Shown here in pieces: positions 4,802 through 30,523 of a DNA stretch of 64,000 bases. This DNA comes from Escherichia phage vB_EcoM-fFiEco06. How positions within the stretch are numbered: position 1 is the stretch's first letter; each line of letters opens with the position of its first letter. A model generated the notes under the pieces. That model did no database searches, had not been told where the DNA came from, and saw only the letters and a program-made list of their open reading frames with translations. The stretch lies in sequence record NC_054914.1; one strand, given 5' to 3'. The position numbers and the translations under genes were made by a program.

Positions 4802-5439
4802 TGAATGAACCCCAATTACTAATTGAAACTTGGGGTCAACCTGGCGAAATTATTGATGGCGTACCAATGCTTGAATCTCATGATGGAAAAGACTTAGGTT
4901 TAAAACCGGGTTTATACATCGAAGGAATATTCATGCAAGCGGAAGTTGTCAATAGAAATAAACGTCTTTATCCAAAACGTATATTAGAAAAAGCGGTAAA
5001 AGACTATATTAATGAGCAAGTTTTAACTAAACAAGCTCTCGGAGAATTAAATCATCCTCCACGCGCTAATGTTGACCCGATGCAAGCCGCTATCATTATA
5101 GAAGATATGTGGTGGAAAGGAAATGACGTATACGGACGAGCTCGTGTTATTGAAGGTGACCACGGTCCTGGAGATAAATTAGCAGCTAATATTCGTGCCG
5201 GATGGATTCCAGGAGTTTCTTCTCGTGGATTAGGTTCATTGACTGACACAAATAAAGGTTATCGTATCGTAAACGAAGGATTCAAATTAACTGTAGGTGT
5301 TGATGCAGTATGGGGTCCAAGTGCTCCAGATGCATGGGTAACTCCTAAGGAAATTACCGAATCACAGACGGCTGAAGCCGATACAAGTGCCGATGACGCC
5401 TATATGGCTCTCGCAGAGGCCATGAAAAAAGCGTTATAA
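4801..5439 (+). CDS. 21: prohead core protease gp21
   Basis: 212 aa; length and position match T4 gp21. Confidence 0.9.
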   Translation: MNEPQLLIETWGQPGEIIDGVPMLESHDGKDLGLKPGLYIEGIFMQAEVVNRNKRLYPKRILEKAVKDYINEQVLTKQALGELNHPPRANVDPMQAAIIIEDMWWKGNDVYGRARVIEGDHGPGDKLAANIRAGWIPGVSSRGLGSLTDTNKGYRIVNEGFKLTVGVDAVWGPSAPDAWVTPKEITESQTAEADTSADDAYMALAEAMKKAL

Positions 5440-5442
5440 ATA
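5435..5442 (+). promoter_or_regulatory. late promoter TATAAATA for gene 22
   Basis: Exact match 28 nt upstream of ATG 5470. Confidence 0.65.
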
Positions 5443-5469
5443 TTATTATCTAAACAACAGGACTACAAA

Positions 5470-22764: not shown

Positions 22765-22768
22765 CAAT

Positions 22769-22786
22769 GGGGACCTTTCGGTCCCC
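22769..22786. terminator. bidirectional hairpin GGGGACC-UUUC-GGUCCCC after gene 54 and the convergent small ORF
   Basis: 7-bp GC-rich stem followed by ATATTTTTATTT. Confidence 0.75.
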
Positions 22787-22792
22787 ATATTT

Positions 22793-23083
22793 TTATTTAC
22801 GGAATGAAATGAAAGCAGAAACTGAAGCAACTAAACTGTCTTCAATATAAACTTCAATTTTTACCGGAGCTTCTGACTCAAATTTACCTGTTACTACACC
22901 TTGGAAAATACTTTCAGTCTGTTCTGGCTTTGAAAAATTTTCAGAAGGAAAAATTCCGAACTTTTTATCTGTTCCAAAAATTTTGATAAATTCATCGTAA
23001 ACTGCTTCATTAAAAGCATTATCAGCAGGAATAACTCCTTCAACTACAAGTTCTTGACCTAAAAAGCGCAAAGAAGATTTCAT
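22793..23083 (-). CDS. hypothetical protein, 96 aa (downstream of Alt paralogs; possibly alt.-3-like)
   Basis: ORF in co-oriented array. Confidence 0.45.
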   Translation of the reverse strand: MKSSLRFLGQELVVEGVIPADNAFNEAVYDEFIKIFGTDKKFGIFPSENFSKPEQTESIFQGVVTGKFESEAPVKIEVYIEDSLVASVSAFISFRK

Positions 23084-23143
23084 TTTGTGTTCCTCATGTT
23101 ATGTCAGTAAGACTACTATAACACAACACGAGGGACTTGTAAA

Positions 23144-25201
23144 CTACATTTTGAACTTTTTAGACATTCCGTTGATGTTAACCAAAGAAGTCAAGATTTG
23201 AGAAACTTCATTTTCCTCTTCTTTTGATTCTTCTACAAGGAATTGATTAAATCCAGCCATTGGACGAACTTCACCAGTTTCCATTAGATGGTCTCCATCA
23301 TATACTGATTCTTCTAATTGTTCAGAAGGAGGAACGATTGTACCTTCGATTAGATACTTGTTATAAGCAGTTTCTTTCATAAAGTACGTACTTACTTTAT
23401 TAATCTTCAGTAAAATTCCACGTGGTAGAATAACTTCAGCTTCTGATGGAAATCCTGATAAATGACCTGGAACGATAACTTTGATTCGCTCAGCTCCTTT
23501 AATTACCATACCCACGCTAGTTTCTGCATCTTCATTAGCATATGTAGAATGACTACCCATATGCATCAAATCTTCTGCATCAACGGAACCTTCTCCTTCA
23601 CCAGAAAATACTGCGCCGGAATCATCTAGAGCCATATAGTTTTTACCATGCTCACCGAAGATATTTGGTTTAAGCGATGTGGATACGAAGTTCTTGAAAT
23701 AGAACATTTTATTTTCAATGTTATGACGCAAAGTTTTAAAGGTAACTTCTTGCCCACGGTAAAGTGTAGTTCCTGGAGGAAGAACTGATCCTTTGGCAAA
23801 GGCAGAATCTAACGTCTCGATGTGCTTAATAGCTCGTTCCATGTATTCTTCACGGGTAGAATCTGGTTTACCCAAAAGGAACGAGTTCATTTCAACATAT
23901 GAATCTGCACAATAATCTTCAATTACATCAGATTCAGCCTGAGTCAGTCCTTTTGGAGCTACTTCGGTGCTTGCGTATTCATATGCCTGGGCAGCAGATT
24001 CATTAATCAATTTATAAATGCCATTCATTACAAATTGAATAATAGCTGTCTTTTCATCTGGTGTGGTTTTAGAACCTTTAACTAAATCATTAATAATTTT
24101 CTTAATAACATCAAAGCTATTAGAAATATTAATGTCAGCAAGATCGCTTAAAATTTTATCAGTTTTATAATCAAAGAATTCTTTATTCTTTAAATATTCT
24201 TGAGAACCTTGATATGTTATATCGCTCTGCAACTTGATAGATGGATCACGTAAACGTGCATGGGCCAATGCAATATGATTTCGGAAGCTTTCTAGTTCAT
24301 AATCGCTAGATTTAAAACGAGAAGCACTTCTCATACCACCGATAGCTCCTTTGCTGAAGTTTGAACCAATCTGGATAACGCCAGAGTTCATTGGTCCTTC
24401 TGCTTTATATACCGGAACTTTAGATTCAAACTCTTGATATTTCTTGGCAGCGAAGCTATCACCCTGTAGCGAAGCATCGACAGTAGAATATTGAGCTTGT
24501 GCTGCTAATCGACGACTAATTTTAGTTTTCTGAATAACAGCTTGGTCCGTGCGCTTATCATTTTCTAAAGCAATAGAAGCAGCAACAGCGACAGCTTTAG
24601 GAACAGCATTTCCTGTTTTAACGTCTACATAAACATCACCGACCTTTGATTCAACTTTTGTGAATAACTCAGTTGAAATGGGAGGTACACCTGGAATGTC
24701 TTCTAAATTGGCATTTTTACGGTAAACCATAATATATGCGTACTTTTTATCGTAATCCCAGATTTCCTTTAAAAGAACATATCGACCTGCTCCTTTAGTA
24801 CGTACTAAACGGTCAGCAATAACTTGCATTTGACGAGCTGCGCCATTTGTTTTACTCTTTAGTACACGGAATAAGCACGCGTCAATTTTATACTGCTTCA
24901 TTGTTTGAAGAGCAGTATCAAAAACGGCATTAATGACACCAATTGGATTTCCACCCAAGTTTTTAAGCTTAACTAATGATAGTTTCTCATTAACACCTAT
25001 CATTACGATATGCATCATTTTATCGCCTGGCTTAACGTTTTTATTCGTATCACCACCAGAGGTGTATGTACAAAATCTAAATCCAGGAAGCACGCTTTCT
25101 TCGCCGGCTTGAATAGCAAAAATTTGTGGTATTTTATGCTTAGGATTTAAGTTAACAACCGGCGCCGAAGCGCCGTCAAATAATTCTGTAATAAGTTCCA
25201 T
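23144..25201 (-). CDS. Alt-like ADP-ribosyltransferase paralog (685 aa), R-S-E motifs intact
   Basis: N-terminus MELITELFD shared with the upstream copy; TLYRGQ, NFVSTSL, EAEVILPRG motifs seen. Confidence 0.75.
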   Translation of the reverse strand: MELITELFDGASAPVVNLNPKHKIPQIFAIQAGEESVLPGFRFCTYTSGGDTNKNVKPGDKMMHIVMIGVNEKLSLVKLKNLGGNPIGVINAVFDTALQTMKQYKIDACLFRVLKSKTNGAARQMQVIADRLVRTKGAGRYVLLKEIWDYDKKYAYIMVYRKNANLEDIPGVPPISTELFTKVESKVGDVYVDVKTGNAVPKAVAVAASIALENDKRTDQAVIQKTKISRRLAAQAQYSTVDASLQGDSFAAKKYQEFESKVPVYKAEGPMNSGVIQIGSNFSKGAIGGMRSASRFKSSDYELESFRNHIALAHARLRDPSIKLQSDITYQGSQEYLKNKEFFDYKTDKILSDLADINISNSFDVIKKIINDLVKGSKTTPDEKTAIIQFVMNGIYKLINESAAQAYEYASTEVAPKGLTQAESDVIEDYCADSYVEMNSFLLGKPDSTREEYMERAIKHIETLDSAFAKGSVLPPGTTLYRGQEVTFKTLRHNIENKMFYFKNFVSTSLKPNIFGEHGKNYMALDDSGAVFSGEGEGSVDAEDLMHMGSHSTYANEDAETSVGMVIKGAERIKVIVPGHLSGFPSEAEVILPRGILLKINKVSTYFMKETAYNKYLIEGTIVPPSEQLEESVYDGDHLMETGEVRPMAGFNQFLVEESKEEENEVSQILTSLVNINGMSKKFKM

Positions 25202-25204
25202 GAT

Positions 25205-27259
25205 TTATCCTTGAACGAACTTGTAAGGCATGTTTGCAATATCTATACAAGACGCAATAATTCCAAGAGATGATTCTACTTTCTGTTTAACGTTTGATGA
25301 AACAAATGATGTAAAGTCAACTCTGTCTTCTATTTCAATATCACCTGTCATTGCAACTACTTCGCCGGTTTCCATTAGACGGTCACCGTCATAAATTACC
25401 GATTCGGTGAGTTCTTCTGTGGTCATAACTTCAGCTTGAATAAGCTTGTTGTTAGTTTTAACTGTTCCATCATTGTAAGATGCATCGGTTATTTTATTAA
25501 CTTTGACCATTAATCCACGTGGCAAAATGACTTCCATTTCATTTGAAGGTGCTAAACTTCCACCTGGTAAAACAACATTGACTTTATCAGCCCCAGTAAT
25601 AACCCATCCAATTCCAACTAAATTATCGCTAGAATTTACTAGTCCTTCATCAGTTTTATCAATAGAAACACTTAAACGCTTTTCGTCTGGTAAAACACCC
25701 ACAGATGAATCAGTCATCCAGGTACCAAAAATATTTGGATATAATGATGTTGACACAAAATTTCTAAAATAAAAAACTCGATTTTTTACCAGTGCTTCAT
25801 ATATTGAAGGTAACATTCGTTGTGAACGATACAAAGTAATACCTTTTGGTAATCGTTCACCATTTTTAAAGGCAGAATCTAAATTATCAATAGCTTTTTC
25901 TATATCAGATGCTGTCAAAATACTTGTACGCTCATCTGGATTATATAATCCCAAAAGAGCGTTATTTATGTCTACATATCCTGAACTTACGTATTCACGA
26001 ATTCCGCGTTTTTGTGCCGGTGTGTATTTAGATGAATCTTTATTTTCGACTATAGGATGTAGTGACCATCCAGCGGTAAGAGCATATCCACGCAATTCTC
26101 TTCGAATAATCTTTGTTTTTATTGCATTCCAAGAATTTTGTACTAACTCATTCGCAGCATCTTGATTTAAATGCGAATGCTTGTTAATGTTTCTTTCTAA
26201 CCAAGCACCTTTATATTTTTCTAAAGTATCATCAACTATAGAAGCAATAGTTTCTAAAGTTTTTATTGAAGTAATAGATTCTTTTCGTAATCTTTCTAAA
26301 GCTTTATTTTTTATTTCTGCATTAACATCAGATTCTTTATCTTCAGGAATTATAGAAGCTTCTCTGAATGCCATTCCAGCTGTAACACTACTAAGAGCAT
26401 TCTCTAATGCAAATCCTGAAGTAGAAATAACAGTTAATTCATTAGCGTCAGAAATTAAAGGAGCGTCAGCAGGTTTATTTAATTCTGCTGCTGAAGCCTC
26501 AAATTTTTGAAACATCGGCGTTTCAAATCTAGAAGATTCCAATGATTGACTTTGCGCAATTGCTCTACGGGAAATTTTAACTTTAACGATTACAGCTTGG
26601 TCAGAACGTTTATCATTTTCTTGCGCAATAGATGCTGCAATTGCCTCATTTTTAGTTACTTGAGCTCCAGTATCTTTATTGATATAAACATCACCGACCT
26701 TCGATTCAACTTTAGTAAAGAGCTCAGTACTAATTTCCGGAACTCCCGGAATGTCTTCTAGTGATACATTTTTGCGATGTATAAGAATATATGCATACTT
26801 TTTATCGTAATCCCAGAGTTCCTTAAGAAGGACATATCTGCCACCTGAACGACTACGGATAAGTCTATCAGCAATAACTTGAATTTGTCGAGCTTGACCA
26901 GCGGTTTTAGACTTAAGAATACGAAGCATACAGGCATCAATTTTATACTGACGCATTGTTTGCATCGCAACAGTAAAAACTGAATTGATATAATTAATTG
27001 GGCTTGGACCAAGACCTTTTAATTTAGCAATTGAACCTTTAGCAGTTAATGTAAAAGGAACAATATGCATCATTTTATCGCCCATCTTTAAATCGCGATT
27101 AGTATCACCTCCAGATGTATAGGTACATAAACGAAAGCCTGGTTGTTCAATTGCATCATCAACATGAACTGAAAAAATTTGCGGTATTTTCTTCTTTGGA
27201 TTTAAGTTTGTAATCGGAAGAGTAGTATCTTCGTCAAATAATTCTGTAATAAGTTCCAT
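25205..27259 (-). CDS. alt: ADP-ribosyltransferase Alt (virion-packaged); start taken as second ATG (MELITELFDEDTT...)
   Basis: LYRSQ, FVSTSL, EMEVILPRG (R-S-E ART motifs); late promoter and RBS upstream; ~684 aa. Confidence 0.8.
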   Translation of the reverse strand: MELITELFDEDTTLPITNLNPKKKIPQIFSVHVDDAIEQPGFRLCTYTSGGDTNRDLKMGDKMMHIVPFTLTAKGSIAKLKGLGPSPINYINSVFTVAMQTMRQYKIDACMLRILKSKTAGQARQIQVIADRLIRSRSGGRYVLLKELWDYDKKYAYILIHRKNVSLEDIPGVPEISTELFTKVESKVGDVYINKDTGAQVTKNEAIAASIAQENDKRSDQAVIVKVKISRRAIAQSQSLESSRFETPMFQKFEASAAELNKPADAPLISDANELTVISTSGFALENALSSVTAGMAFREASIIPEDKESDVNAEIKNKALERLRKESITSIKTLETIASIVDDTLEKYKGAWLERNINKHSHLNQDAANELVQNSWNAIKTKIIRRELRGYALTAGWSLHPIVENKDSSKYTPAQKRGIREYVSSGYVDINNALLGLYNPDERTSILTASDIEKAIDNLDSAFKNGERLPKGITLYRSQRMLPSIYEALVKNRVFYFRNFVSTSLYPNIFGTWMTDSSVGVLPDEKRLSVSIDKTDEGLVNSSDNLVGIGWVITGADKVNVVLPGGSLAPSNEMEVILPRGLMVKVNKITDASYNDGTVKTNNKLIQAEVMTTEELTESVIYDGDRLMETGEVVAMTGDIEIEDRVDFTSFVSSNVKQKVESSLGIIASCIDIANMPYKFVQG

Positions 27260-27282
27260 CATAGCCTCTCTAGTGTTTATTC

Positions 27283-27290
27283 TATTTATA
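27283..27290 (-). promoter_or_regulatory. late promoter TATAAATA (minus strand) for alt
   Basis: Plus-strand TATTTATA ~20 nt upstream of GAGAGG-ATG. Confidence 0.6.
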
Positions 27291-27295
27291 AAATT

Positions 27296-27313
27296 AAAGG
27301 CCCGAAGGCCTTT
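27296..27313 (-). terminator. AAAGGCC-CGAA-GGCCTTT hairpin downstream of the 62-aa ORF
   Basis: 7-bp stem read directly; overlaps the ORF stop. Confidence 0.5.
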
Positions 27314-27500
27314 AATAATCTAGTGGTAAGAGAGTACGGTATATTTCAAACTTTGGACCTTTTTCATAGGCATCAAATGTTTCTGTGAATTTATTATAAG
27401 CGTATGCATCTACAAATTCGAGAATGACTTGTGATACAGAAGTAGAAACATCTCCACCTTCTTTTTGAGCAATGACAATTGTTTCTAAGTAAGCTTTCAT
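27312..27500 (-). CDS. hypothetical small protein, 62 aa, between gene 30 and alt
   Basis: Start overlaps ligase stop (ATGA). Confidence 0.4.
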   Translation of the reverse strand: MKAYLETIVIAQKEGGDVSTSVSQVILEFVDAYAYNKFTETFDAYEKGPKFEIYRTLLPLDY

Positions 27501-29226: not shown

Positions 29227-30062
29227 TAGAATGCTCCTTGAAAAATATTATCACCACTAGTAGGTCTATTATACAAATACTCTATGCCACCGGGTTTAAT
29301 ATAGTTCCATGTCTGAAACGGATGCGTCTGATATGGATGATATAGATTATAAGGATTAAATCCAGGAGTTCTCCAGGTAGTGTTCCAAGGAAAAGAATCG
29401 TTTTTAATCATCTTTTCAATTACATCTTTTATAGCTTTTTCACTATCAAAACTTTCTTTATTTTCATTCGATGGAAAAAGCTTATTCTCTACATCATTCC
29501 ATGTATAAACTCGCTGTGCAGTTTTTGGAATACTGTCACGCTCCCCTCGAGCCATCCAATAAACAGGAACATTTAATATTTCACTCGCATGATCGCAGTG
29601 GTGAGCGAGATCGTCAATATAACAAATTACGTTATATTTCTCTTTTGCCTTTTTGAACAACTCTTCTTTTGAAGAATCATGACCACACATCAATACTTCT
29701 GAGAAGGCACCAGGAAAAAGAGCATTCAAATTAAATTGACGATTCAGCAGAGCGTCAATAGAATCACCCAGTGCTGTAACAGCTACAAAATTATAATCTT
29801 CTTTTAATTTGTTAATTACACACAGGGCATCTTTATATGGAGACAAATAGCGAATAAAATCTGAACGATTATACTTTTCGATTAATTTAACACCAAGTTC
29901 TTCATCGCAATTAAAGAGCTTACCAGGAGAAATAAATTTTTCGTCCTGAATCATTTTTAAAATATGTTCCAACGGAAGATTATATTTTTGGGCAAAATAA
30001 GGAAGGCCCGATTGCCAGCTTAAACACACCCCGTCAATATCAGTCAAAATAGTAGGCTTCAT
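29226..30062 (-). CDS. HAD-superfamily-like hydrolase/phosphatase candidate, 278 aa (position of T4 30.2)
   Basis: N-terminal ILTDIDGV (DxDG[VT]) and later YIDD motif; aromatic/Pro-rich C-terminal tail. Confidence 0.5.
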   Translation of the reverse strand: MKPTILTDIDGVCLSWQSGLPYFAQKYNLPLEHILKMIQDEKFISPGKLFNCDEELGVKLIEKYNRSDFIRYLSPYKDALCVINKLKEDYNFVAVTALGDSIDALLNRQFNLNALFPGAFSEVLMCGHDSSKEELFKKAKEKYNVICYIDDLAHHCDHASEILNVPVYWMARGERDSIPKTAQRVYTWNDVENKLFPSNENKESFDSEKAIKDVIEKMIKNDSFPWNTTWRTPGFNPYNLYHPYQTHPFQTWNYIKPGGIEYLYNRPTSGDNIFQGAF

Positions 30063-30523
30063 AGAGAGTCTCTTAATAGGTTTAACACATCAATAAATTC
30101 AGCTTCGGTTAGTATTGTATCATCTTTTGTTAGACCACTAGCCATGCTATGCTTCAAAATTTTTCCTTTAGAGGCTTGTAAGGCATCACGAAACCCCTTG
30201 TTTTGAATCGCTGCTTCAAAATATGCATTTGTATACAACTCTTTCCATGCTGCAGAGTATCTTGAAAAGGGAATTCCAAGCCAGAAAAGCGTCCCACGGT
30301 CCGCAGCTCTTGCATAAGCTCTTCCACTTTGCTGGGCGGCCAAGCCGGAGAGCCCAAATATACGTTTTTGTTGTTCAACATTTTTCACCTTGCATCCTTG
30401 GAGGAATCCTTCAAGACCTCCGAATTGAATACCATCCATGACGAAAGGCCATTGGGCGAAATTACTTAATGCACACGATGGCCATCTAAAATTGCTTCTA
30501 ATCTCTAACTCAGACATTTTCAA
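30059..30523 (-). CDS. NADAR (YbiA/DUF1768)-like domain protein candidate, 154 aa (position of T4 30.3)
   Basis: Motif ALSNFAQWPF-x2-DG-x-FGGLEGFLQG-x-K resembles the NADAR core as I recall it. Confidence 0.45.
   Translation of the reverse strand: MKMSELEIRSNFRWPSCALSNFAQWPFVMDGIQFGGLEGFLQGCKVKNVEQQKRIFGLSGLAAQQSGRAYARAADRGTLFWLGIPFSRYSAAWKELYTNAYFEAAIQNKGFRDALQASKGKILKHSMASGLTKDDTILTEAEFIDVLNLLRDSL

Follow-up and report, generated by a model that had tools for sequence, protein, structure and literature searches.

Introduction

Phage T4 carries an ADP-ribosyltransferase (ART), Alt, inside its head; about 40 copies per head are held in the prohead core and injected (PMC9026906; PMC5512222). 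The prohead protease gp21 processes Alt at both ends: a cut at ITE-6 removes the six N-terminal residues, and a cut at LTE-619 takes off 63 C-terminal residues (PMC5694885). Alt uses nicotinamide adenine dinucleotide (NAD+) to ADP-ribosylate proteins of the host, among them the RNA polymerase alpha subunit (PMC5512222). Here we examine the alt locus of Escherichia phage vB_EcoM-fFiEco06 (NC_054914.1) within a stretch of 64,000 nucleotides, referred to below as the window. Two genes of this family stand there in tandem: copy 1, the ortholog of T4 alt, and copy 2, an intact paralog of the alt.-2 type. We consider it likely that this late Tequatrovirus operon encodes two functional Alt-family mono-ADP-ribosyltransferases that would be packaged, trimmed by gp21, and injected, probably to act on different host targets.

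Other R-S-E ARTs have been described. ModA and ModB of T4 are paralogous enzymes of this class in the same phage group (PMC5512222). Unlike the Alt copies, they are small, expressed early, and unpackaged, and they have no N-terminal domain. The R-S-E toxins C3, VIP2, iota, CDTa, and Vis (PF03496) resemble both copies in having an ART fold with R, S-T-S, and E-x-E motifs. Compared with C3/VIP2-type toxins, the phage proteins add a Tevenvirinae-specific N-terminal domain (N-domain), a helical middle, and propeptides that a protease is predicted to remove. They would reach the host cell from the phage head, with the injected DNA, whereas the toxins are secreted or rely on a binary partner.

Duplications of alt were noted earlier, including a full-length one in phage 44RR (Nolan et al. 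2006). [quoted passage not shown] Furthermore, alt.-2 is annotated as a full-length gene in RB32, its product being named "Alt-like RNA polymerase ADP-ribosyltransferase," and many RefSeq records list this product twice. The tandem arrangement is thus already known, both annotated and described in print, and as a discovery it carries little weight, being the majority state in Tequatrovirus genomes. What we add is modest: the direction of change that led to the T4 remnant, evidence that copy 2 is under strong selection, and a view of the locus as built from cassettes. A literature search turned up neither experiments on this second gene nor any study of its targets, and PMC12373910 and PMC13096335 contain nothing on Alt. 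Copy 2 is of interest for work on early host takeover, ADP-ribosylation, and defence evasion by T-even phages.

Two full-length Alt-family genes in tandem

The two open reading frames (ORFs) follow each other head to tail on the minus strand, and the gene order is gene 30 (DNA ligase), alt.1, copy 1, copy 2, alt.-3, gp54, which is also the order in T4. Copy 2 occupies 23144..25201 (-), stop codon included, and encodes 685 amino acids (aa). Read from its first ATG, copy 1 spans 25205..27262, also 685 aa, and its product starts with MM. The second ATG, at 27259, is a likelier start than the one at 27262, because a GAGG Shine-Dalgarno (SD) sequence stands 5 nt before it, GenBank uses the same start, and T4 Alt begins MELITE. 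This would give a gene at 25205..27259 (-), stop codon included, and a protein of 684 aa. The tandem ORFs described in the earlier note are therefore in place on the minus strand, with copy 1 likelier to be 684 than 685 aa long.

Copy 1 is 98% identical to T4 Alt (NP_049811) over 684 aligned positions, and the T4 gene occupies the same locus, between alt.1/gene 30 and gene 54. From this near-identity, an activity like that of T4 Alt is to be expected. The identity of copy 2 is 41% both with T4 Alt (E = 5e-157, 719 alignment columns) and with copy 1 (BLASTP, E = 2e-158). It resembles T4 Alt in length, domain order, R-S-E motifs, placement in the late operon, and both gp21 site motifs, and differs from it in the middle (12% identity) and the ART domain (35%).

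The similarity between the two copies is distributed very unevenly. Over aa 1-238 the identity is about 67%, and strings such as MELITELFD, YTSGGDTN, and MMHIV, pointed out in the earlier note, are found in both. The middle region, aa 239 to ~415, is essentially unalignable at 12%, and over aa ~239-480 the figure is ~12-19%. Identity then rises to 35% in the ART domain (aa 416-625; ~35-40% in its core) and to 44% in the tail. The description of the central ~300 residues as strongly divergent was a fair one.

Both proteins belong to the Alt family. PF03496 (ADPrib_exo_Tox), with a gathering cut-off of 23.4 bits, matches copy 1 with 120.9 bits (E = 5.5e-35) and copy 2 with 72.3 bits (E = 4.4e-20). 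In addition, phrog_802 ("Alt-like RNA polymerase ADP-ribosyltransferase") aligns with each protein over its full length, with E values of 1e-261 for copy 1 and 2e-255 for copy 2. Relatives carry a precomputed Pfam match to PF26846 (Tevenvirinae_ADPRT), which we take to cover the N-terminal part of Alt family proteins. No NCBIfam family matched copy 1 or copy 2. Both genes are full-length Tevenvirinae Alt-family members.

The catalytic motifs are complete in both copies. In copy 1, the catalytic Arg motif LYRSQ (aa 476-480) is encoded at 25820..25834 (-), the S-T-S motif FVSTSL (aa 501-506) at 25742..25759 (-), and the E-x-E motif EMEVILPRG (aa 574-582), in the ADP-ribosylating turn-turn (ARTT) loop, at 25514..25540 (-). 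The counterparts in copy 2 are LYRGQ (aa 480-484, with R482) at 23750..23764 (-), FVSTSL (aa 505-510) at 23672..23689 (-), and EAEVILPRG (aa 587-595) at 23417..23443 (-). We aligned 21 sequences, which comprise orthologs of copy 2 together with various homologs of Alt. No variation occurs at R482, S507, S509, E587, or E589 (numbered as in copy 2), and conservation at T508 is 90% or more. All of the motifs quoted in the earlier note are present, and the disabling R, S, or E substitution that it had allowed for in one of the copies does not occur. Members of the C3/iota family that have E-x-E in this loop, and not Q-x-E, are arginine-specific. By this analogy, an R-S-E ART domain with an E-x-E loop predicts arginine specificity for both copies, and this agrees with the source name "NAD(+)--arginine ADP-ribosyltransferase" on database relatives.

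We then considered the predicted structure of copy 2. The AlphaFold2 model (predicted local distance difference test [pLDDT], 74.7; predicted template modeling score [pTM], 0.69) consists of an alpha/beta domain at aa ~12-215, an all-helical part at ~220-470, an ART domain at ~475-622, and a C-terminal stretch of low confidence. When the PDB was searched with this model by Foldseek, the ART domain was matched to Vis (4xzj, E = 1.6e-7), Certhrax, C3bot, CDTa, iota-like toxins, and VIP2, each with a probability of 1.0 and a target template modeling (TM) score of ~0.6; among viral models the search returned Alt-like proteins of other Tevenvirinae. A search of solved structures by sequence gave no match for copy 2 and only weak matches to CdtA for copy 1 (E about 0.01). 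We know of no solved Alt structure. In the CdtA alignment, the Arg motif of copy 1 falls on TVYR and its E-x-E motif on GEYEVLL; FVSTSL resembles the FISTS of CdtA, a pairing of S-T-S motifs that this alignment did not make.

T4 alt.-1 and alt.-2 as the remnant of a copy 2-type gene

In T4, alt (682 aa) is followed by two small ORFs, alt.-1 (61 aa, NP_049810) and alt.-2 (67 aa, NP_049809). The former is 95% identical to aa 1-56 of copy 2 and the latter 98% identical to aa 62-116; both are only 58-62% identical to copy 1. Using blastn, we found the T4 locus to be collinear with the window, with 95-96% DNA identity on both sides of a gap of 1,690 bp. Two lesions separate the T4 sequence from an intact gene. 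One A is missing from an A-run (window ~25044), a frameshift that splits alt.-1 from alt.-2, and 1,690 bp of copy 2, corresponding to window 23164..24853 (-), are absent. This deletion is bounded by the 9-bp near-repeats CTAAAGAGT and CTAAAAAGT of the window, and the alignments overlap by 9 bp at the junction. The remnant lies at 5066-5451 of the T4 locus extract that we compared.

Since the DNA is collinear apart from a 1-bp frameshift and a 1,690-bp deletion, T4 alt.-1/alt.-2 is the degraded remnant of an intact copy 2-type gene, not a partial duplication. Seen in this light, the note on T4 ("an old duplication of the first part of gene alt") takes the polarity backwards, and the RB32 note ("apparent insertion in alt.-2") likewise reverses the direction. 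The earlier note on the window had envisaged that copy 2 might simply be the T4 alt.-2 with its known inactivity. The opposite is the case: the T4 fragments are the broken remnant, and the intact gene evolves under the constraint described below. Full-length orthologs, 98-99% identical to copy 2, are the RB32 alt.-2 product (YP_803136) and an unnamed T2 protein (AYD82791).

The identical 1,690-bp deletion junction is present in two phages isolated from nature: ACG-C40, which has a T4-type alt, and Salmonella phage SG1, which has a T2-type alt. A junction common to these two phages and T4 could reflect either one old deletion with later recombination of the flanks or recurrence at the same repeat.

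Copy 2 is widespread and strongly constrained

The 1,690 bp absent from T4 are present at no less than 80% coverage in 400 phage records, including T2, RB32, RB18, RB7, and wV7. The whole two-gene region is covered to at least 80% by 376 of the 528 records that match the locus. By these counts, the two-gene state is the majority and the T4 state the minority. T4 is thus the atypical phage here, being without a strongly conserved, probably injected enzyme kept by T2, RB32, and ~400 relatives.

For an analysis of selection, we compared copy 2 from the window, RB32, T2, wV7, and 11B_SA_NWU. In all five genomes, the gene encodes 685 aa and has no internal stop. Protein identity is 97.7-99.3%, synonymous divergence (dS) is 0.11-0.27, and the ratio of nonsynonymous to synonymous divergence (dN/dS) is 0.028-0.045. 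Copy 2 is under strong purifying selection. Shigella phage sb4 was excluded from this comparison because many of its locus genes are fragmented (including both alt copies, ligase, and gene 48), a pattern that points to sequencing errors.

Putative signals for packaging and late expression

Both copies have gp21 cleavage motifs at aligned positions. The published C-terminal site of T4 Alt, LTE-619, is present in copy 1 as LTE/S (the slash marks the published or predicted cut), encoded at 25400..25411 (-). Cutting copy 1 at ITE-6 and LTE-619 would leave 613 aa and 68.1 kDa; the published mass of mature Alt is 68.2 kDa. Copy 2 begins with MELITE, encoded at 25184..25201 (-), and therefore has the ITE-6 motif of Alt. 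Aligned with LTE-619, it has a second L-x-E, LEE-631, as LEE/S at 23306..23317 (-), followed by the conserved SVYDGDHLMETGE. The site in full reads QLEE/SVYDGDHLMETGE, and the same region of Alt reads L-x-E before SV(I)YDGD. After both cuts, the predicted mature form of copy 2 would have 625 aa and a mass of 69.1 kDa. Conservation of both cleavage motifs in copy 2 lends support to packaging and injection of both copies. The MELITE propeptide and the ~230-aa alpha/beta N-domain probably serve incorporation into the prohead core.

An exact match to the T4-type late promoter motif, TATAAATA, lies at 27283..27290 (-), 24 nt upstream of the copy 1 ATG, where the earlier note had placed it. It is the sole minus-strand copy between 16.5 kb and 32.9 kb; across the window, the motif occurs 18 times, compared with 7.95 expected. 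Directly upstream, at 27293..27316 (-), is a hairpin, AUUAAAGGCC-UUCG-GGCCUUUAAU, which overlaps the alt.1 stop codon and has a U-rich stretch after it. Its RNA fold has a free energy of -13.5 kcal/mol (z = -3.7), and none of 200 shuffled sequences was as stable. This hairpin is probably a terminator that keeps transcription of the upstream genes from running into the alt operon. In T4-like genomes, a terminator has been reported to be conserved upstream of alt (Nolan et al. 2006).

At the junction between the cistrons, 25202..25212 (-), the sequence reads CAAGGA-TAA-ATC-ATG. The SD sequence of copy 2, AAGGA (25212-25208), overlaps the final codons of copy 1, whose TAA (25207-25205) is separated by the spacer ATC from the copy 2 ATG. 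Copy 2 thus starts at 25201, 3 nt past the copy 1 stop, as the earlier note had it, and has an SD sequence of its own. T4 has the same junction ahead of alt.-1. In a pattern scan, nothing resembling a terminator turned up between the two genes or immediately 3' of copy 2; the first such site on the alt strand is at 22788-22767, past alt.-3. Copy 2 would be read off the same transcript as copy 1. We also looked at whether copy 2 might have a late promoter of its own. The nearest candidate, TATAGATA at 25240-25247 (-), is one mismatch away from the consensus and was not counted. It sits in the final codons of copy 1, ~40 nt before the copy 2 ATG, and is kept in T4.

A probably modular locus

The N-domain and C-terminal tail of copy 1 are identical to those of T2 Alt, and the two proteins differ in the middle and the ART core. 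In DNA, identity between the window and T2 is ~97% on either side of 25437-26522 and only ~55-65% within this sharply bounded block of 1.09 kb. The block, 25437..26522 (-), is a variable cassette that encodes aa ~246-608 of copy 1, that is, the central helices and the ART core, and it distinguishes T4-type from T2-type alt alleles. The window and T4 have alleles of 682-684 aa, and T2, RB32, wV7, and 11B have alleles of 697 aa; the two types are 73-75% identical. About 171 records carry the T4-type cassette at 90% identity or more. Among the matches listed, many other Tequatrovirus records carry a version of the cassette that is ~46-47% identical.

Outside its own orthologs, the closest relative of the copy 2 effector part is the Dhakavirus Alt (JS10/JS98 type), whose middle is 44% and whose ART domain is 56% identical to that of copy 2. 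The N-domains follow another pattern: that of the JS10-type Alt is 45% identical to that of copy 2, and those of copy 1 and copy 2 are about 67-68% identical to each other. It is possible that the N-domains have been homogenised between the tandem copies or that both track the same capsid.

In two metagenome contigs (Logan SRR24155011, 5001-7055, and SRR19633722, 5001-7061), a single chimeric alt gene stands between alt.1 and alt.-3. Each of these genes is copy 1-like over its initial ~545 or ~640 nt and copy 2-like from there on, with different crossover points. The chimeras look like products of unequal crossover between tandem copies in which the copy 2 effector was kept. The contigs are short-read assemblies. 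The longest exact word common to both copies in the window is 28 nt, at the 5' end and not at the crossover points, which argues against an assembly artefact without excluding it. Taken together, these features make the alt locus look modular: its ends are constant, and its effector part can be exchanged.

How the second copy may act, and alternatives

In the mechanism that we propose, a single late transcript would start at TATAAATA (27290-27283), and both cistrons would be translated from it, copy 2 from its own SD sequence 3 nt past the copy 1 stop. Both proteins would enter the prohead and be trimmed at both ends by gp21, with the C-terminal propeptide of each copy lying behind its putative L-x-E site. 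They would then be injected and would ADP-ribosylate arginines of host proteins with NAD+. Packaging, processing, and injection of copy 2 is the best-supported reading, because the gp21 motifs, the conserved N-domain, and the predicted co-transcription from the late promoter all favor it. Since the middle and the surface of the ART domain diverge strongly (12-35% identity), it is probable that the host targets of the two enzymes differ. Several points weigh against this proposal. T4, ACG-C40, and SG1 do without an intact copy 2, and the gene is therefore dispensable on at least some hosts. The structural model has low confidence at an ART loop (aa 516-540) and at aa 629-663, the putative C-terminal cleavage region. 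The suggested difference in targets is drawn solely from sequence divergence. In our literature search, copy 2 appeared only in genome-level mentions, by Nolan et al. (2006) and in a 2026 BioTech paper, and we found no paper that detects it in virions by proteomics or assays it as an enzyme.

Three other explanations can be set against the same data. Copy 2 could be active and injected and yet redundant with Alt, hitting the same targets as a matter of dosage or as a back-up copy. Both copies do share the R / S-T-S / E-x-E set, the predicted arginine specificity, and the architecture, and T4 has lost copy 2 with no known phenotype. However, a middle that is only 12-20% identical and an ART domain at 35% do not fit well with shared targets; a purely redundant duplicate is not expected at dN/dS ~0.03 across hundreds of genomes; and the chimeric single genes kept the copy 2 effector, not the Alt part. 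We regard redundancy as unlikely. A second alternative is that copy 2 is active but unpackaged and acts late, inside the producing cell. ModA and ModB of T4 show that ARTs can act without being packaged, but copy 2 keeps the MELITE/ITE-6 propeptide and a ~230-aa N-domain at 67% identity to Alt, as well as an L-x-E at the aligned C-terminal cleavage position. Its predicted co-transcription with alt from the late promoter, next to baseplate genes, and the chimeras, in which the N-domains of the two copies prove interchangeable, also speak against an unpackaged protein and make this explanation quite improbable. Finally, copy 2 could be a decaying or catalytically dead duplicate, a pseudoenzyme, and the homologous locus of T4 is indeed a frameshifted, deleted remnant. 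An intact 685-aa ORF is hardly what decay would leave, and we rejected this idea, which seems barely credible, on the grounds of invariant catalytic residues and a dN/dS of 0.03-0.045.

Beyond the proposal of two packaged enzymes with probably different targets, the cassettes invite a more speculative idea, which we put forward tentatively and rate as somewhat less probable than its negation. The alt locus may be a two-slot polymorphic-effector system, in which an N-terminal delivery domain and a C-terminal propeptide stay constant around a cassette, made up of the middle and the ART domain, that is swapped. Tequatrovirus would have at least three such cassettes, those of T4-type Alt, of T2-type Alt, and of alt.-2. 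The last of these would be the most conserved and widespread and would have a host target of its own, perhaps a protein of defence or stress and not RNA polymerase. If this is true, T4, the phage on which all Alt biology was worked out, is a natural null mutant for the alt.-2 cassette.

Neighboring genes and sites

Over the 4.9 kb spanning the locus, the window matches the Tequatrovirus Escherichia phage vB_EcoM-fHoEco02 (MG781191) at 100% identity. The MG781191 record labels copy 1 HE2_204, "alt," and copy 2 HE2_203, "hypothetical protein." Upstream of copy 1, alt.1 matches PF24647 in a Pfam scan. Directly past the copy 2 stop and before alt.-3, an early-type promoter-like site, GTTTACA-17 nt-TATAGT with a TG, lies at 23143..23115 (-). 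The next downstream gene is alt.-3 (DUF5498) at 22793..23083 (-), which matches PF17602 with an E value of 5e-64. Between alt.-3 and gene 54, at 22767-22788, is a hairpin with a 9-bp stem that is terminator-like on both strands. The baseplate genes 54, 48, and 29 follow beyond alt.-3, on the strand opposite to the alt genes. On the other side of the locus, 3 kb away from both ART genes, is gene 30.3 at 30059-30523 (-). Its product, gp30.3, is annotated in MG781191 as a member of the NADAR superfamily, an ADP-ribose-related family; a local Pfam scan of gp30.3 returned only Phage_30_3 (PF08010).

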